In this document: in pieces, positions 3,664-17,344 of the stretch
Layout of the letters: each line of letters opens with the position of its first letter
Position numbering within the stretch: the stretch's first letter is position 1
From: a virus
Taxonomy: Duplodnaviria; Heunggongvirae; Uroviricota; Caudoviricetes
Direction: 5' to 3' (one strand)
Virus record (IMG/VR): IMGVR_UViG_3300013099_000019
DNA length: 18,664 bases
The notes under the pieces: generated by a model
What the model saw: only the letters and a program-made list of their open reading frames with translations
Told to the model about the DNA's origin: nothing
The model's database searches: none
Position numbers and translations under genes: made by a program

Positions 3664-3996
3664 ATGTCTGTAATTTATTTACTACCATGTCCCTTTTGTG
3701 AAGGTGATGCTATTTTTGACACGGTAGAAGAAGAATCACGTTGTAATATAATGATAGAATATCCAATAGTAAAATGTTCTAATTGTTTAGTTAGAACTGA
3801 CGGATGTGCTACTAAAGAAGATGCCGCAGAAGAATGGAATACTAGAAACAGTAAAGAATTAAGAGACGTTTATTCTTGTAGTACTTGTCTTCATTTTTCT
3901 TCAGGTAATGCTAATTTTGATGCTGGAGGTATATGTTTAAAACATGATCAAACTTGTTATGCTGATGATGGTATTTGTATTAATTTTGTAAAATAA
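3664..3996 (+). CDS. Lar-family restriction-alleviation-like protein with an extra C-terminal four-Cys domain
   Basis: LLPCPFCEG...VKCSNC...KEDAAEEWNTR matches the Lar_restr_allev pattern (LxPCPFCG...CxxC...AxxxWNxR); followed by CSTCLHF...GICLKH...CINF. Confidence 0.7.
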   Translation: MSVIYLLPCPFCEGDAIFDTVEEESRCNIMIEYPIVKCSNCLVRTDGCATKEDAAEEWNTRNSKELRDVYSCSTCLHFSSGNANFDAGGICLKHDQTCYADDGICINFVK

Positions 3997-4356: not shown

Positions 4357-5259
4357 ATGTTTACTAAGTATAGACCATTTAGAATAGTATTTATTTTAGT
4401 AGTATTAACACTAATACTTTTTAGTGCTAATTTTACTCAAAGTATAGCTGAAGATACCCCTAAAATTATAACCAAAATTTCAGAAGAGGAACCTTCAATA
4501 ATAGTAGCTAAAACTTCTATAGTAGTAGTAAATGCTACTTTTATTAGAGAGCCTGATGCATCTCCTTCAGAAGTAATTGATTATGACGTTACACATTATC
4601 TTCGTAATGTAAATTATATACCTGGAGCAGTAACATGGGAATGGGGGCCTTTACCTACTTATAGTCCTTGGCCTCAAGGATCAACAGTTGCTACTGGAAG
4701 AATATGGGCTTGGCGTACTCCTGATAATGGTAAAATATATGAAGGATTAGCTTGGGATTATATTACTAATTCTACAACACACAAAGGTAGAGCCAATGAT
4801 GTACCTAATTGGATAGGTACAATGATTTCATCACTTTGTCATACTAATTCTACTTGTAATGCTACTGAACGTACAAGGATAGAATTTTTTCCAGGAAAAA
4901 CTATTGATTATAATAATTCTGAAGATACGGAGTTAATATCTTTAAAAATTACTCCAAGTGATGTTGGCATATTTTATGAGAATGAAACACAACAGTTCAA
5001 AGCTATGGGTATAACGCCTGACGGTACTATAGTTGATCTTACAAATCAAGTAGATTGGTTTATTGATCCTTCAGGTTTTCCTTATAAAAATTCTGACCAA
5101 GATATGTCTGAAGGAGCAGTAGTAACTATTAATAGTACTGGTTTAGCAACTGTCCATGATACTTGGGGAAGAGTTATGGTTAATGCTTGTTATCCTAAAG
5201 GATGTCATGGTAATTCTGCTACACTTGGTGCTATTCAATTATTACTTTTAAACCATTGA
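4357..5259 (+). CDS. Secreted protein with a C-terminal Big_2 (bacterial Ig-like) domain
   Basis: N-terminal signal peptide (basic n-region, hydrophobic h-region, SIA/ED cleavage-like site); LISLKITPS...TQQFKAMG...DGT..DLTNQVDW...INSTGLATV is a typical Big_2 pattern; ends GAIQLLLLNH. Confidence 0.75.
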   Translation: MFTKYRPFRIVFILVVLTLILFSANFTQSIAEDTPKIITKISEEEPSIIVAKTSIVVVNATFIREPDASPSEVIDYDVTHYLRNVNYIPGAVTWEWGPLPTYSPWPQGSTVATGRIWAWRTPDNGKIYEGLAWDYITNSTTHKGRANDVPNWIGTMISSLCHTNSTCNATERTRIEFFPGKTIDYNNSEDTELISLKITPSDVGIFYENETQQFKAMGITPDGTIVDLTNQVDWFIDPSGFPYKNSDQDMSEGAVVTINSTGLATVHDTWGRVMVNACYPKGCHGNSATLGAIQLLLLNH

Positions 5260-8421: not shown

Positions 8422-10506
8422 ATGATTAATTTAAATAAAATAGGTAAAGCTAATACAATATTTGCAGAAATACTCGAAGAAGACACTATTATACAATTTA
8501 CAGATGCTTTAAGTCAGCCTACTACTATTCGTGGTGCTTTAATGCCAGACGCACATTTAGGATATACTCTACCTATAGGTGCAGTAATTGAAACAAATGG
8601 TATGATATTTCCTTCTTACGTAGGGTTTGATATTGGCTGTACAGACTGTGAGACTGAATTTCTCACAAAAAATGGATGGAAATGCATAGATGCCTATAAC
8701 AATGAAGAGGTCATGATCTACGATGATCTAACCAATTCTTGTCATTTTGATCATCCAAAAGCCTATATAATTAATGATTGTGAGAATTTTTGGCATTTGA
8801 AGAATAAATCTGTAGATCAAATGCTTACTGGTGATCATAGAGTCATACTTTTTCCACAAAGGAATCCTTTTAATAGTATGGGAAGTGTAGCCTATCTAGA
8901 AACTCTAATTGATAAAAATAAAGCTCTTGCTAAAGGAATAACACAAGGTTTTAAAACAATAATACCATTAAATGACTCTTCTTTAGGCTTAGCCCTTACG
9001 GATGACGAGATACGAATGATAGTGGCCATTTCAGCAGATGGATGTATTAGAGCTTATGGTAGTATTGAGTTTCATATGGTAAAAACCAGAAAAATTACTA
9101 GATTAAAAATGCTAGTTAAATCATTAGGACTTGTGCTCAAGGAGTATAACATCAAAGATGGGTCCTTTGCCTGTTCTATATCTTTCTACAAGGCTATTAA
9201 AAACCTCGATATTTTTTGGAAAGCTAGCGCAAGGCAACTTTGTATTCTTGCTGAAGAGGTAAGATATTGGGACGGGCATATAAAAAAAGATGAGCGTATA
9301 ACTTATTCAACAAGTATAGAAGGTAATGCTCAAGTAGTTCAATATGCTTTTTCCGTTACAGGTTTTAGGACAAACATACATAAGGTTACCTATAAAGATG
9401 ATAAAGATTGGGCACCTACCTATACAGTATATACAACTAAAAATATACTCACACAATTTCCTAATCCTGGATACATACAAGAAGTGCCCTCCAAAGATGG
9501 AAAATCTTACTGCTTCTATACTGCTACTGGTTATTGGGTTATGCGTAGAGGTGGTAAAATAGCTATTACAGGAAACTGTGGAGTTTGTGCTGCTCCAATA
9601 ATGGCTAATATAAAAGATATTCGAGAAAATGCTAATAAAATTCAAAAACAAATTCTACTTGAAATACCTGTTGGCTTTCAAAAACATAAAAAAGAAGTTG
9701 CAAACGCTTCTACTTTTTTAAAAGATAAAGCTATTAAAAACAAACTCACTCATGAAATGTATCATATTTACCGTAAAAAACAAGGTAATTTACAGTTGGG
9801 TACTCTCGGTCAGGGCAACCACTTTATTGAAGTAGGAGTAGATGAAACAGAACGTGTATGGGTAATTATACATTCTGGATCACGAGGTATTGGTCATGGT
9901 TGTGCTACTCATTATATGAAATTAGCTCATCCAAATAATAAGGCAGGAGAAGGTCACTATGGTTTTGATGTAAATTCTTTTGAAGGTAAAAATTATATTA
10001 AAGATCTTGATTTTTGTCTTGATTACGCTTTACTTAACCGTAAAATTATGATTAACCTTGTAGTGGATGCGATTGAAAAATGTGGTATAAAATGTTATTA
10101 TAACTCTCAATCTCTTATCAACCGTAATCATAATCATGCCGAAACTAAGGATGGCAAAAAATGGATACATCGTAAAGGTGCAACTCATGCAGAAAAAGAT
10201 ATGCTAGGAGTAATACCTGGTAATATGCGAGATGGTTCTTTTATTGTAAAAGGACTTGGTAATCCTGACTCTTTATGTTCTTCTTCTCACGGTGCAGGTA
10301 GAATATTAGGACGCAAAAAAGCAAAAGAAAGTCTTGATATGGAAGAATTTACACAAACTATGCAGGGTATAGTAGCAAATGTATCAAAAAGTACTTTGGA
10401 TGAATCTCCTATGGCCTATAAAAATATTTTTGAAGTAATGAAATTACAAAAAAATCTTGTCGAAGTAATAAATTATGTTAAACCTATATTAAATGTAAAA
10501 GGCTAG
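8422..10506 (+). CDS. rtcB: RtcB RNA 3'-phosphate/5'-OH ligase precursor with an intein (381-aa spliced product)
   Basis: Full RtcB motif set: MPDAH, GFDIG|C, GQGNHFIEV, IHSGSRG, HNHA, HRKGAT, IPGNM, SSSHGAGR (guanylated His), DESPMAYK, terminal KG. Confidence 0.95.
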   Translation: MINLNKIGKANTIFAEILEEDTIIQFTDALSQPTTIRGALMPDAHLGYTLPIGAVIETNGMIFPSYVGFDIGCTDCETEFLTKNGWKCIDAYNNEEVMIYDDLTNSCHFDHPKAYIINDCENFWHLKNKSVDQMLTGDHRVILFPQRNPFNSMGSVAYLETLIDKNKALAKGITQGFKTIIPLNDSSLGLALTDDEIRMIVAISADGCIRAYGSIEFHMVKTRKITRLKMLVKSLGLVLKEYNIKDGSFACSISFYKAIKNLDIFWKASARQLCILAEEVRYWDGHIKKDERITYSTSIEGNAQVVQYAFSVTGFRTNIHKVTYKDDKDWAPTYTVYTTKNILTQFPNPGYIQEVPSKDGKSYCFYTATGYWVMRRGGKIAITGNCGVCAAPIMANIKDIRENANKIQKQILLEIPVGFQKHKKEVANASTFLKDKAIKNKLTHEMYHIYRKKQGNLQLGTLGQGNHFIEVGVDETERVWVIIHSGSRGIGHGCATHYMKLAHPNNKAGEGHYGFDVNSFEGKNYIKDLDFCLDYALLNRKIMINLVVDAIEKCGIKCYYNSQSLINRNHNHAETKDGKKWIHRKGATHAEKDMLGVIPGNMRDGSFIVKGLGNPDSLCSSSHGAGRILGRKKAKESLDMEEFTQTMQGIVANVSKSTLDESPMAYKNIFEVMKLQKNLVEVINYVKPILNVKG
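8638..9576 (+). mobile_element. Intein, 313 aa (aa 73-385), with a LAGLIDADG-type endonuclease region
   Basis: Block A CTDCETEFLTKNGWK; block B MLTGDH; LAGLIDADG-like MIVAISADG and EVRYWDG; C-terminal blocks YCFYTATGYWVMRRGGKIAITGN followed by extein Cys. Removal restores GFDIG-CGVCA. Confidence 0.92.
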
Positions 10507-13236: not shown

Positions 13237-13959
13237 ATGAACAAAAAAGAATGGGACAACAGGTCTATAGCTAAAGTAATTATTGCTAATGATAAAAATA
13301 TTACTAGTAAACAATTAGCTGTTTATTTTAAAGTAAGTACTAATGCCATATATAATGTGATAAGTAAGTATAGAACTGGTAAATTAAGTGAAGAAAACAC
13401 AAATTTAGTACAAAAGATAATAAGTTTTTTCCCATACGAAAGTGTTGAAACATTATGTAAGGATATACTTATGTGTGCTAATAAACCTGTCAAATATGGA
13501 ACTCGAAAACATCGAAAAATATGGACAAATGAAGAAAGAGCTCAAATAATTGCCGCTAGAGCTAATAATGTTACTTTTAAACAGATAGCTAATTATTTTA
13601 AAGTACACTACCATAGCGTACATGGCGTTAATCACATGTATAAAAATAGAAAATACAACCTTAATACTATAAACAGTATACGTAGTATTTTACGTTCTTT
13701 TACTTATGAAGATGATTTAAAACTGTGTACTGCTATGAATAAAAGTAAAAGTACTTCTACAAAAATACCTCAATTCAAAAAATCAAAAGATACTTATGTA
13801 GTAGGTCATGTAGATAGTAATAATAATATTATTACTATAAAATCAAACAAGTTGAACAAAGAAGAAGCTGTAAACACTTTAAATACGTCTGTTATTTGTA
13901 ATGCAAAGATTTTTAAACTTGTTGAAATGAAAGTAATAAGTCATTTAGAGGAAGCATAA
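13237..13959 (+). CDS. Tandem-HTH putative DNA-binding protein, 240 aa
   Basis: Two gapless 90-aa-period repeats: W6/W96, KQ(L/I)A.YFKV at 25-33/115-123, F.YE...LC ending at 74/164; HTH-like pattern. Confidence 0.7.
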   Translation: MNKKEWDNRSIAKVIIANDKNITSKQLAVYFKVSTNAIYNVISKYRTGKLSEENTNLVQKIISFFPYESVETLCKDILMCANKPVKYGTRKHRKIWTNEERAQIIAARANNVTFKQIANYFKVHYHSVHGVNHMYKNRKYNLNTINSIRSILRSFTYEDDLKLCTAMNKSKSTSTKIPQFKKSKDTYVVGHVDSNNNIITIKSNKLNKEEAVNTLNTSVICNAKIFKLVEMKVISHLEEA

Positions 13960-14927
13960 TGAGTGGAATAAATTATATTTCTCCTTGGATTTTCACTACG
14001 GACAAGTGTAATCTTGCTTGTCCGTATTGTTATGTTAAGCAAAAAGATTTTGATATGTCTGAGCTTACTTTATTTTACATATTAAATAAATTTTCTAAAT
14101 TACTTGATACAAAGCAAGTAGATAAAGTAGTACTACGAATAGCAGGTGGAGAACCAATGCTTGCTTTTAATACTTGGGCTGGTCCAATAGAATATTTTCT
14201 TCAAAGTTACCCTAAACAAGCATCTGCAGGTTTAATTAGTAATCTTACTATACTTAAACCTTGGCATATTAATTATCTTAATTTTAATAAATTTGGTTTT
14301 GGTATTTCTCTGGATGGTTGGTCTTTTTCTAAAGAATTTAAAAATGGCAAATCCTCAGCTGAATATGTAAGACATAATATCGACACTTTGGCTAAAGGTA
14401 CAAAAGGTGGGTACAATAAAATAGATATATCTACAGTAATAACTTCTAAAAGTATTAATGATATTGAAATACTCGCTGAATGGGTAGCTATTAGAAATAT
14501 GAATTGGGGAGTGTACCTTGATCATTATTATGATGATGAGTTTAATATTGAATTTCTTGCAAAAAAGTTGTTTCAAGTTATTGACATTTTATTTGATAAA
14601 GGTTATGACGTATTAAATAAGTTTAAATTTAATAATGTAAAATTATCTTCTACTTATGACGGTTGTACTGCTGGTCAAAATCTAATAGCCATAGATACTA
14701 AAGGTTATGTTTATGACTGTCAAACTGCTATATATGGTACACCTAATTGTCATATTAAAGAGTATGTTCCAAGGACTATACCTAAACATACTACACCTGA
14801 ACGTTGCAATGATTGCCCAATAAAGGAATATTGTCGGGGTGGTTGTAAGCTTAATAATAATTTCGGCGATACTTGTAGTTTAATGCTACTTGTAAATAGC
14901 CATATTCTTTCAAAAATGGAGATCTAA
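13959..14927 (+). CDS. Radical SAM enzyme with a SPASM domain (anSME/thioether-maturase-like), 322 aa
   Basis: CNLACPYC (C17/C21/C24), GGEP, ISLDG; SPASM Cys pattern C-x17-C (CTAG...GYVYDC) ... Cx2Cx5Cx3C (CNDCPIKEYCRGGC)-x9-C. Confidence 0.9.
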   Translation: MSGINYISPWIFTTDKCNLACPYCYVKQKDFDMSELTLFYILNKFSKLLDTKQVDKVVLRIAGGEPMLAFNTWAGPIEYFLQSYPKQASAGLISNLTILKPWHINYLNFNKFGFGISLDGWSFSKEFKNGKSSAEYVRHNIDTLAKGTKGGYNKIDISTVITSKSINDIEILAEWVAIRNMNWGVYLDHYYDDEFNIEFLAKKLFQVIDILFDKGYDVLNKFKFNNVKLSSTYDGCTAGQNLIAIDTKGYVYDCQTAIYGTPNCHIKEYVPRTIPKHTTPERCNDCPIKEYCRGGCKLNNNFGDTCSLMLLVNSHILSKMEI

Positions 14928-14929
14928 TC

Positions 14930-15166
14930 ATGCCTAGTTGTGATGGAAGTAATTGTGGAGCTTGTTCAAGTAATTGTAATTGTAGCATATCTAATAACAG
15001 TGCAGAAGCTAAGGCTGAATTAAAAAAAGTAAAGGCTAAACTTACACAAGCCTTAAAAGAAAATGCACAATTACGAGATATTATTATTGAAAAAGAACTT
15101 ACACCTAAAGAACTTAAACCTAAAAAAGTTATACGTAGAAAGGTTATACGTAAAACAAATAATTAA
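14930..15166 (+). CDS. Cys-rich peptide with a coiled-coil/basic tail, candidate rSAM substrate, 78 aa
   Basis: GGAG RBS inside the rSAM 3' end, ATG 2 nt after its stop; five Cys in the first 18 residues (C4, C9, C12, C16, C18). The substrate role is inferred. Confidence 0.7.
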   Translation: MPSCDGSNCGACSSNCNCSISNNSAEAKAELKKVKAKLTQALKENAQLRDIIIEKELTPKELKPKKVIRRKVIRKTNN

Positions 15167-15202: not shown

Positions 15203-15712
15203 ATGAAATTAAAACGTGCTATGTATCCAGGTTCTTTTAATCCTTGGACCAGAGGACACCAAGATATTTTAGAACGGGCATTAAAAATATTTAATACAGT
15301 GGATATTGTTGTAGCAAAAAATCCTAATAAAAATTTAAATATTACTAATATTGTTCGTTCTCTTACACCGCTTGAAGAACAATTTAAAAATAAAGCCTAT
15401 ATTTATCTTACTGAAAATCTTATTACCGATTTTTATCACCCTAATTGTCCAAAACAAGAACTTCCTATTATTAGAGGTGTTAGATCTGGTGATTGGGAAT
15501 ATGAACAAAACTTGGCGCAATGGAATAAAGAACTTGGCAAAGATACTATCTTTTTTAGCCCCAAGCTAGAAAATGCACATATTAGTAGTTCTGCCCTTCG
15601 TCTGTTAATAACAGAAAATAAAGACGTAACAAAGTATATAGGTAATAAAGAAGTATTTAAAGCCTGGTCTTATTTTAATGAACATGGAGAAATTTATACT
15701 AAAGGAGAGTAA
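15203..15712 (+). CDS. coaD: Phosphopantetheine adenylyltransferase (CoaD/PPAT-like), 169 aa
   Basis: RAMYPGSFNPWTRGHQDILERA (TxGH variant of HxGH), IIRGVRSGDWEYEQNLAQWNKEL, TIFF...HISSS. All CoaD hallmark blocks are present in order at the expected length. Confidence 0.85.
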   Translation: MKLKRAMYPGSFNPWTRGHQDILERALKIFNTVDIVVAKNPNKNLNITNIVRSLTPLEEQFKNKAYIYLTENLITDFYHPNCPKQELPIIRGVRSGDWEYEQNLAQWNKELGKDTIFFSPKLENAHISSSALRLLITENKDVTKYIGNKEVFKAWSYFNEHGEIYTKGE

Positions 15713-15713
15713 T

Positions 15714-16769
15714 ATGTATTTATTATTAATACTGTTAATACCCTTATCTTGGCCTTGGATATCAAAATATATCTGGCCACATAAGATTACCAATAAAGAA
15801 CTTGCTATCCATATAGCTATCGTTTTGGCCGTTACGTGTGCTACTTATTATATAGGTATGGTAGGTAATAGTTATGACATTGAAGTATGGAGTGGAGAAG
15901 TAACAGGAAAGAAGAAAGTAAGAGTTTCTTGTGAGCACTCTTATCAATGTAATTGTGTTACTACTACTGATTCGAAAGGTAATAGTTCTACTACTTGTCA
16001 AACTTGTTATGACCATAGTTATGATATTGATTGGGATGTGTATTCAAATGTAATGGACACTAGTTCAATTAATAGAATAGATGAACAAGGATTAAGAGAG
16101 CCTCCACGTTGGACACAAGTACAAATAGGAGAACCATACTCTGATACAAAACGTTTTAAAAATTATATTAAAGGGGCGCCAGATAGTTTATTTAACGATA
16201 AAGCAGTAGTTACTAAGTTTGAAAATAAATTACCTAAGTATCCTAATAGTATCTACGACTACTACAAAATTAATCGAGTATTAGCAGTTGGGGTAGAGGT
16301 ACCTGATATTCGAGACTGGAATAGAGATTTATCTGTAATACTAAAGAAACTAGGACCTGCAAAGAAGTCCAATGTAGTAATTGTAGTAGTTAATACTAAT
16401 GATATTCAGTACGCAAAAGCACTGAAAGAATACTGGTTAGGAGGAAAGAAAAACGACACAGTAGTAGTGATTGGCTCTACTAAATATCCTACAATAGACT
16501 TTGTAGATGTATTTTCCTGGTCTAAGAATGCAAGTTTAGAGATTGAAATAAGAAATGAGATACTTGCAGAAGGAAAACTTAACAGGGAGAAAACAATAGA
16601 AATAATCAAACAACAGATACAGAAGAATTTTAATAAAAGAAGTAATGAAGAATACGCCTACTTGGAAGAGGAAACCGTCCCACCAGTATGGCTATTACTA
16701 CTTACAGTATTTATGAGTTTTACTGCCTCAGGAGTAGTTTCTTATTTTACTTATAAAGAAGATTTTTAA
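15714..16769 (+). CDS. Membrane protein with a Cys-rich extracytoplasmic insert and a TPM-like domain, 351 aa (start revised from 15678)
   Basis: AAGGAG precedes ATG 15714; two N-terminal TMs, SCEHSYQCNC...TCQTCYDH, WLGGKKNDTVVVIG (TPM-like), one C-terminal TM. Confidence 0.7.
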   Translation: MYLLLILLIPLSWPWISKYIWPHKITNKELAIHIAIVLAVTCATYYIGMVGNSYDIEVWSGEVTGKKKVRVSCEHSYQCNCVTTTDSKGNSSTTCQTCYDHSYDIDWDVYSNVMDTSSINRIDEQGLREPPRWTQVQIGEPYSDTKRFKNYIKGAPDSLFNDKAVVTKFENKLPKYPNSIYDYYKINRVLAVGVEVPDIRDWNRDLSVILKKLGPAKKSNVVIVVVNTNDIQYAKALKEYWLGGKKNDTVVVIGSTKYPTIDFVDVFSWSKNASLEIEIRNEILAEGKLNREKTIEIIKQQIQKNFNKRSNEEYAYLEEETVPPVWLLLLTVFMSFTASGVVSYFTYKEDF

Positions 16770-16786
16770 TTTAAAGGAGAAAAACA

Positions 16787-17344
16787 ATGAGTAAAGGGTT
16801 AATCGTAGTATTAGGTGTAGTAGGTATGGGAATTTTTACAGTAGTAGCTCTTATTATGATTGTTGTAGGAATGAATAATACAGCAGTCCGTATGGAGAAA
16901 ACTATTACAGCTCAGTATGAACAGAATCAGAATTCACGGTCACAATATGTCAATTCTATTGCTGAGGCTGTACAAATTCCGGCTATGTATAAAGATGACT
17001 TTAAAGAAGTTATTCAGGCAGACATGGAAGGTCGTTATGGTAAAGAGGGTTCCAAAGCAACCTTTCAATGGATCAAAGAACGTAACCTTAATTTTAATTC
17101 AGAACTTTACACCAAGCTTCAAAATATGATTGAAGCAGGAAGAGCCCGTTTTGCTCATGAGCAAGAAATGCTTATTGACAAAAAACGGCTGTATGAAACT
17201 AAGTTGGAAACATTTCCAGGTTCTGTAGTTTACCCCATACTTGGTTTTCCTAAAATTGACTTAGATAATTTTAAAATTGTTAAGAGTCAAGATAATGCAA
17301 AAGTATTTTCTGACGGCGTAGAAGGACCTTTAAAGCTTAAATAG
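16787..17344 (+). CDS. LemA-like membrane-anchored helical protein, 185 aa
   Basis: N-terminal TM, then a helical domain ending LYTKLQNMIEAGR...YETKLETFPGSVVYPILGF, matching the LemA C-terminal LQ..(I/L)E...YN....FP......GF pattern. Confidence 0.7.
   Translation: MSKGLIVVLGVVGMGIFTVVALIMIVVGMNNTAVRMEKTITAQYEQNQNSRSQYVNSIAEAVQIPAMYKDDFKEVIQADMEGRYGKEGSKATFQWIKERNLNFNSELYTKLQNMIEAGRARFAHEQEMLIDKKRLYETKLETFPGSVVYPILGFPKIDLDNFKIVKSQDNAKVFSDGVEGPLKLK

Follow-up and report, generated by a model that had tools for sequence, protein, structure and literature searches.

In most of the known systems in which a radical S-adenosylmethionine (rSAM) enzyme with a SPASM domain acts on a Cys-rich peptide, an N-terminal leader is bound by a RiPP recognition element (RRE; RiPP, a peptide made by the ribosome and modified after its translation), and the product is an exported bacterial natural product. 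The ranthipeptide and sactipeptide systems (PapB/PapA of freyrasin, CteB/CteA of the SCIFF peptides, and NxxcB) place an enzyme with a full SPASM domain beside a Cys-rich ribosomal substrate, and a similar layout is found in a virus of the Caudoviricetes (IMG/VR record IMGVR_UViG_3300013099_000019). In the 18,664-nucleotide stretch of this virus that was analyzed, referred to here as the window, a gene for an rSAM/SPASM enzyme of 322 amino acids (P0001; positions 13959..14927, + strand, with its TAA stop ending at 14927) is followed after a gap of 2 nucleotides (tc) by a gene for a small protein of 78 amino acids (P0002; 14930..15166, + strand), which has a Cys-rich N-terminal head, a long helix, and a basic tail. 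The original prediction, made from the sequence alone, had described this enzyme and the open reading frame (ORF) behind its stop, and every detail of that description agrees with the ORFs, the Pfam and NCBIfam matches, and the AlphaFold2 models. The two genes are a functionally coupled pair, and we lean toward regarding them as an enzyme and its substrate, the latter having a core at its N terminus, with no leader before it, and a helix that serves as follower. Unlike the ranthipeptide and sactipeptide systems, the pair has no RRE, its core would lie without a leader at the extreme N terminus, and recognition is predicted to proceed through a C-terminal follower helix; in addition, the substrate would be a helical protein (51 to 173 amino acids across the family), no protease or exporter accompanies it, and the carriers are phages and mobile elements. 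No description of the enzyme/small-protein family was found in the literature searched, the rSAM/SPASM peptide systems of Kaur et al. (2020) being different from this pair, and no curated family, PHROG, or PADLOC model covers it.

The enzyme passes the cut-offs of the generic domain models, with 31.2 bits for the Pfam model PF04055 (Radical_SAM; cut-off 29.5) and 32.3 bits for the NCBIfam SPASM domain TIGR04085 (cut-off 27). A search of 5.8 billion proteins gave 62 homologues, 30 of which were aligned. The CX3CX2C motif of the radical SAM cluster (C17, C21, and C24; codons at 14007..14030, + strand) is invariant in 30/30 of these sequences, as are seven Cys residues of the SPASM auxiliary-cluster region (14664..14876, + strand), namely, C236, C254, C283, C286, C292, C296, and C306, with the spacing C236-x13-G-x4-C254 ... 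C283-x2-C286-x5-C292-x3-C296 ... C306. Besides a partial TIM barrel and the SPASM domain, the AlphaFold2 model (predicted local distance difference test [pLDDT] of 87) contains a long helix at the C terminus (residues 302-319; 14862..14915, + strand), on which the follower helix of the small protein is predicted to dock. The absence of an N-terminal RRE, as originally predicted, is supported by both sequence and model: no PqqD-like domain precedes the rSAM core, the cluster motif begins at residue 17, and the strand formed by residues 6-12 runs directly into the core. Members of the enzyme clade are 312 to 358 amino acids long and carry the cluster motif within about the first 25 residues. A perfect 12-bp inverted repeat at 13997-14026 lies inside the enzyme gene, over codons of the CX3CX2C region; the hairpin it forms resembles a terminator but lacks a strong T tract, and the repeat may be due to chance.

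At the level of individual families, the enzyme widely misses all NCBIfam equivalog cut-offs (340-855 bits). Its best NCBIfam match is the PapB ranthipeptide maturase family NF047865, with an E value of 1.7e-19 over nearly the full length and 70.2 bits against a cut-off of 340. A comparison with the SCIFF and anSME models, which the original prediction had suggested, left the enzyme far below both the SCIFF maturase TIGR03974 (31.4 bits versus 425) and anSME TIGR03942 (40.3 bits versus 349). The nearest folds in the PDB (ChlB, CteB, anSME, TigE, SkfB, and SuiB) all belong to SPASM/twitch enzymes that modify peptides or proteins; CteB ranks with the top ones at template modeling (TM) scores of 0.74-0.76. 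The best PDB match in sequence and fold is ChlB, the three-residue cyclophane (triceptide) synthase of ChlA (PDB 9gm3; E value, 1.9e-18; TM score, 0.72), a compact rSAM/SPASM enzyme crystallized with the leader of its precursor. ChlA uses this N-terminal leader, whereas the small protein described here is predicted to use a follower. The match to prokaryotic viperin (PADLOC pVip; 46.8 bits) was rejected, as it covers only the generic core (residues 12-167) and the enzyme has a SPASM domain. When compared with 50,697 GenBank phage records by tblastn, the enzyme found rSAM proteins at 22-30% identity only, mostly from Campylobacter phages, and the small protein found nothing; no cultured phage in this set carries the pair. 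Separately, GTDB genomes of Chloroflexota, Actinomycetota, and Patescibacteria hold many rSAM/SPASM genes of about 310 amino acids (L175-L211 and others), which match query residues 7-298 at 21-27% identity and have no MPS-Cys gene; judging from their sequences, they probably form a separate, uncharacterized RRE-less clade.

The small protein P0002 begins with MPSCDGSNCGACSSNCNCS and ends in KPKKVIRRKVIRKTNN, with the basic tail KPKKVIRRKVIRK. After Met-Pro, residues 3-19 consist of C, S, N, G, D, and A only, and in the AlphaFold2 model of the protein alone, residues 20-57 form one confident helix (pLDDT, 85-98), whereas residues 1-19 are predicted to be unstructured (pLDDT, 56-59). This picture of a head of restricted composition, a helical remainder, and a basic tail is the one originally predicted. 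An exhaustive hidden Markov model search of 1.84 billion representative sequences yielded a family of 49 clusters at 50% identity, and in each of them the alignment starts at the first residue of the profile and of the protein. The proposed inverted layout, with the core first and the follower after it, is borne out. By comparison, the SCIFF peptide has a C-terminal six-Cys core that follows a leader, and the small protein matches no SCIFF peptide model; more generally, none of the NCBIfam peptide models matched any of 20 small proteins at an E value of 0.01 or lower. No family for the small protein exists in PHROGs, PADLOC, NCBIfam, or Pfam. A match of its helical part to the Pfam family Phage_Y01A (PF25693; 20 bits versus a cut-off of 27; E value, 0.001) was treated as coiled-coil noise, and a search with ESM Atlas features and structure returned sub-threshold, uninformative neighbors.

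Across 54 distinct small-protein sequences, the N-terminal head MPSCDGSNCGAC (14930..14965, + strand), which is the proposed core and modification site, is nearly invariant. An MPS start is present in 53/54 (P2 in 53/54 and S3 in 54/54), followed by C4 in 52/54, D5 and G6 in 48/54 each, N8 in 46/54, C9 in 48/54, A11 in 46/54, and C12 in 48/54, and the full motif MPSCDG[SA]NC[GS]AC occurs in 40/54. If two sequences whose register is shifted are set aside, position 5 is exchanged for N only (4/54). In one member (P0119), positions 5 and 8 are N and D rather than D and N, with C9 and C12 kept; among the rare members that depart from the Cys pattern, P0118 retains only C4 and C9, and P0106 has M instead of C9. 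Further Cys residues occur at positions 14 and 16, each in 29/54. Conservation of the Cys residues, which the original prediction had made a point to check, is therefore split: C4, C9, and C12 are each kept in at least 48/54, and C16, on which the proposed C-G-x-C-x3-C likeness to the SCIFF core rests, is found in 29/54 only, so that this likeness is not upheld by the family, as it is not by the SCIFF models. Beyond about residue 20, the proteins are helical and weakly similar (mean column identity, 17-32%), although at least 90% of the members in an alignment of 20 share L38. Over their final 15 residues, 12/54 sequences are strongly basic and 11/54 are acidic; the basic tail is lineage-specific, and the proposal that it points to an action on nucleic acid or a host complex consequently does not extend to the whole family.

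The head codons differ synonymously between homologues, including switches between AGT and TCN serine codons. This free synonymous change indicates that selection acts on the peptide and rules out an RNA or DNA element as the reason for the conservation; the recurrence of the 12-mer in 40/54 homologues with such variation likewise excludes chance. A Shine-Dalgarno sequence, GGAG, lies within the 3' end of the enzyme gene (14918..14921, + strand), 8 nucleotides before the ATG at 14930, and a GGAG or GGAGG-type site is found shortly 5' of the MPS start codon in 13/14 other loci (the exception being L098), which shows that the head is truly the N terminus of the protein. Methionine aminopeptidase, given its well-established specificity, should leave a mature protein that starts with Pro-Ser-Cys. 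On an 864-nucleotide contig (L254, positions 1-286), the gene for P0106 is preceded by the 3' end of an apparent second copy of the peptide gene with similar C-terminal residues; on this sequence evidence, some elements may carry tandem peptide genes.

We compared the two genes across loci from metagenome assemblies, IMG/VR, JGI contigs, and GTDB genomes. All enzymes at 43-69% identity with readable downstream DNA (those of the window, L001-L003, L006, L085/86, L087/88, L090-92, L093-97, and L173) have a small gene with the MPSCDG[SA]NC[GS]AC head just 3' of them; in L004, which falls in the same range of identity, the rSAM gene is followed first by one unrelated 58-amino-acid ORF (4960-5136) and then by the peptide gene. 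Because this ORF contains an internal "MPSVD," it was considered as a decayed paralogue of the peptide and rejected (hhalign probability, 1.4%). The three enzymes at 29-34% identity are each adjoined by an MPS-Cys small gene as well: L098 has MPSHCDCDC, upstream of the enzyme, L100 has MPSCDACSACDC, and L101 has MPSDCQCSNACDC. Starting from the peptide side, we looked up eight divergent small proteins, of which seven (P0066, P0067, P0118, P0114, P0119, P0109, and P0116) are encoded directly after an rSAM gene; the eighth, P0106, is the one on the 864-nucleotide contig and apparently lies behind another copy of the peptide gene. Wherever flanks are readable, then, enzymes of 29-69% identity do not lack the peptide, and the expectation that adjacency would be conserved was borne out from both sides. 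A precursor gene adjacent to its modifying enzyme, the general hallmark of RiPP gene clusters, is accordingly seen in all readable loci.

The carriers of the pair are phages and mobile elements whose bacteria are anaerobes of the gut and rumen, and its flanks consist of phage or mobile-element genes, such as the L173 genes for a relaxase, a Bro-N protein, and a GH25-LysM endolysin, the SbcCD-like genes of L253, and genes for SNase, GmrSD_N, and nucleoside deoxyribosyltransferase elsewhere. In an all-against-all BLASTP comparison of these flanks, the enzyme and the small gene were the only genes common to different lineages. An upstream helix-turn-helix gene, a downstream CoaD-like gene, and upstream ORFs of 68-72 amino acids were not conserved across lineages and are ruled out as members of the module. 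The pair thus acts as a self-contained mobile two-gene module across unrelated surroundings. Ten further IMG/VR loci (L013, L025, L026, L037, L041, L045, L046, L048, L055, and L056) carry phage rSAM/SPASM genes of 20-26% identity with varied Cys-repeat ORFs nearby (CNCNY-type, C-x3-C repeats, or CxxC-rich ORFs of at least 100 amino acids), and from their sequences, phage-borne pairs of an rSAM enzyme and a Cys-rich substrate seem to be a broad theme.

The structure of a complex between the two proteins was predicted from the 30-row alignment of the enzyme and a 20-row alignment of the small protein, with three 4Fe-4S clusters and SAM added. The complex scored 0.80 (runs of 0.80, 0.75, and 0.82), compared with 0.00 for the best of three controls, so that the complex prediction proposed for the pair was passed. 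The same mark is reached by 58/80 solved complexes and 2/110 mismatched pairs, counts that are only approximate here because custom alignments and added cofactors were used; furthermore, solved rSAM-peptide complexes (CteB, SuiB, ChlB, and anSME) exist, and the pass may partly be memory. Contact agreement between runs was at least 49%. The model supports binding of the small protein by the enzyme. In the predicted binding mode, residues 27-54 of the small protein (15008..15091, + strand), centered on L38, form the putative recognition element and pack on enzyme residues 229-231, 286-291, and 307-322. The contacts of lowest error on the C-terminal helix of the enzyme are at residues 307, 310-311, 313-314, and 317-318, with 320 and 322 beyond the helix. 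Of the head, only residues 3-6 contact the enzyme with confidence, and they are set against the catalytic domain. Enzyme residues 8, 60, 197-198, 226, 234, and 242 also belong to the interface, which thereby includes the invariant R60 and N226 as well as D234, a neighbor of the auxiliary-cluster ligand C236. Docking of the helix together with contact of residues 3-6 is the geometry expected if a follower is recognized while a free N terminus enters the active site.

Taken as an enzyme-substrate pair, the two proteins would work as follows. The enzyme would recognize the helix of the small protein as a C-terminal follower, in place of the contact between RRE and leader, and this follower would dock on the C-terminal helix of the enzyme and its SPASM domain. 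The free, leaderless head, which after removal of Met reads Pro-Ser-Cys-Asp-Gly, would be fed into the catalytic barrel, where a 5'-deoxyadenosyl radical would start a covalent change centered on the invariant Cys4 and its neighbors. The most likely change would be at least one intramolecular Cys thioether crosslink of the sactipeptide or ranthipeptide type, with D/N5...C9 and N/D8...C12 (i, i+4) as candidate acceptor-donor pairs. The product would be a small protein, intracellular or released by lysis, in which a helical stalk bears a rigid, crosslinked head, and its users would be phages and mobile elements of anaerobic gut Firmicutes. We infer the head to be the substrate, as we do its chemistry and biological role. 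Thioether crosslinking is probable from the class of the enzyme and the composition of the substrate: the head is composed of C, S, N, G, D, A, and P alone, the aromatics that cyclophanes or Lys-Trp links require are nearly absent (W, Y, F, or H within the first 13 residues in 2/54 heads), and D/N5 and N/D8 each sit four residues before a conserved Cys. The cyclophane chemistry of ChlB, which needs aromatics, is implausible on the same count. The Asp or Asn four residues from a Cys recalls the Cys-Asp and Asn-Cys thioether motifs of PapB and NxxcB, respectively. The proposed order of core and follower also has a precedent in follower-peptide RiPPs such as bottromycin, whose core stands at the N terminus with the recognition sequence on its C-terminal side; bottromycin differs in that it is a small exported antibiotic made by unrelated enzymes, YcaO and class B rSAM methyltransferases.

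Several observations weigh against this explanation. An eighth SPASM Cys, C264, is present in 25/30 of the aligned enzymes, which suggests from sequence that auxiliary cluster I may be fully ligated, unlike that of CteB, in whose structure a substrate Cys presumably completes this cluster. Head residues 9-12 make no confident contact in the complex, and the pLDDT of the small protein in the complex is only 54-57. Rare members without C9 or C12 (P0106 and P0118) argue against a single crosslink pattern common to all. The flank comparison showed no accompanying gene for a protease, an exporter, or immunity, so that the pair is not a classical RiPP gene cluster. Finally, three to five clustered Cys residues fit a Zn or Fe-S site equally well.

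The last point leads to the main alternative, namely, that the small protein is a metal-binding partner of the enzyme, which we consider unlikely. Its C-x4-C-x2-C head, possibly on a coiled-coil dimer, would hold an Fe-S cluster or Zn, and the protein would serve as a mini-ferredoxin or other electron donor, as a cluster donor, or as a structural subunit, while the true substrate of the enzyme would lie elsewhere, among other proteins, nucleic acids, or small molecules. The 3-5 Cys residues within the first 16-18 positions, with C4, C9, and C12 so widely kept, would suit such a site, strict co-occurrence and predicted binding suit a subunit as well as a substrate, and the lack of protease and exporter genes raises no difficulty for it. 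Some members also give weak matches to ferredoxin-type models (E values of 0.034 for Fer2_3, 0.044 for TmcB, and 0.0068 for FdxA), but all of these are far under their cut-offs. The constraint on the head, moreover, is not one of Cys residues alone: while the remainder of the protein has low identity, D5 and the non-ligand residues P2, S3, G6, N8, and A11 are held as well, the latter as strongly as Cys. Since D5 gives way only to N (in 4 members) and P0119 has the two residues swapped as N5 and D8, these positions fit acceptor residues better than metal ligands. P0118, which keeps only C4 and C9, nevertheless follows an rSAM gene, and P0106 lacks C9. Moreover, the head always stands at the extreme N terminus and is predicted to be disordered alone, and the model sets residues 3-6 against the catalytic domain rather than against a surface near a cluster.

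A still less probable alternative keeps the enzyme-substrate relationship and replaces crosslinking by a change of a single residue, such as an anSME-like oxidation of Cys4 (or Ser3) to formylglycine, an epimerization, or a similar reaction, which would give the protein a reactive or unusual N-terminal group. The anaerobic sulfatase-maturating enzyme anSME (PDB 4k36-4k39) is a top structural match and among the three closest solved folds (TM scores, 0.70-0.71), and it is likewise a SPASM enzyme without an RRE, of similar size, that acts on Cys or Ser of whole proteins. S3-Cys4 is also the most conserved element of the head, and only residues 3-6 are in confident contact with the enzyme. However, the score of the enzyme with the anSME family (40 bits) lies far below the cut-off, the partner is no sulfatase, and the anSME substrate motif C/S-x-P/A-x-R is absent from the head; in addition, a single-residue change would leave the conservation of D5, N8, C9, A11, and C12 unexplained. 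That the small protein is instead a regulator or inhibitor of the enzyme, or is linked to it by shared expression without direct chemistry, is very improbable: the tight translational coupling (a 2-nucleotide gap and a Shine-Dalgarno sequence inside the enzyme gene) fits a stoichiometric regulator, but such a role does not need a nearly invariant Cys-rich N-terminal 12-mer across enzymes that have diverged to 29-45% identity, nor does it account for a pair that moves as a unit between unrelated genomic contexts.

With the pair read as enzyme and substrate, four features are unusual for the known combination of an rSAM/SPASM maturase and a ribosomal substrate: the core is N-terminal and leaderless, a follower helix is predicted to be recognized, the product would be an entire small protein, and the carriers are phages and mobile elements. 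The differences from known systems lie in an invariant core that starts at residue 2, in the predicted docking of the follower on the C-terminal helix of the SPASM enzyme, and in the occurrence of the two genes as a lone unit. More tentatively, we suggest that crosslinks at the leaderless N terminus, made by an RRE-less SPASM enzyme that reads a follower helix, could define a new class of rSAM protein maturation that is confined to phages and mobile elements. The product, a small coiled-coil protein with a knotted "head on a stalk," would then have its target within the infected cell, such as a component of host defense or signaling, and would not be a secreted antibiotic. If the modification is real, the enzyme would be a compact (about 320 amino acids), RRE-independent maturase with a 12-residue, recognition-independent core, which would make it attractive for engineering, and phage biologists would have a post-translationally crosslinked viral protein. 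If the head is an Fe-S site, a phage-borne mini-ferredoxin dedicated to a radical enzyme would likewise be new.

The surroundings of the pair in the window are AT-rich (G+C content, 27-34%), with every long ORF on the + strand, and resemble an accessory region of a large phage; no close relative of the window was found among GenBank phages. A scan of the window for promoters and terminators gave signals no stronger than the shuffled background, and numerous small ORFs in the rest of the window have no database match. Directly 3' of the pair lies the CoaD-like (pantetheine-phosphate adenylyltransferase) gene (15203-15712; TIGR01510, 95 bits versus a cut-off of 103), whose adjacency to the pair is specific to the window and kept in no other locus compared. 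Two membrane proteins follow (15678-17344), one matching phrog_2087 (E value, 2e-116) and the other phrog_1383, a LemA-like "virion structural protein" family (E value, 3e-58). The flank comparison found no linkage of either to the rSAM pair in other lineages; the phrog_2087 protein has relatives in 486 GenBank phage records, which span many large phages. Further upstream, a gene for an RtcB RNA ligase (8422-10506) is split by an intein, as its Pfam RtcB match falls into two stretches, with LAGLIDADG_3 at residues 284-343, and intein-bearing PHROG families match it as well. A Lar-like restriction alleviation protein of 110 amino acids (3664-3996; phrog_599; E value, 4.8e-9) hints, by its sequence match, that this region of the window contains host-takeover or anti-defense genes.

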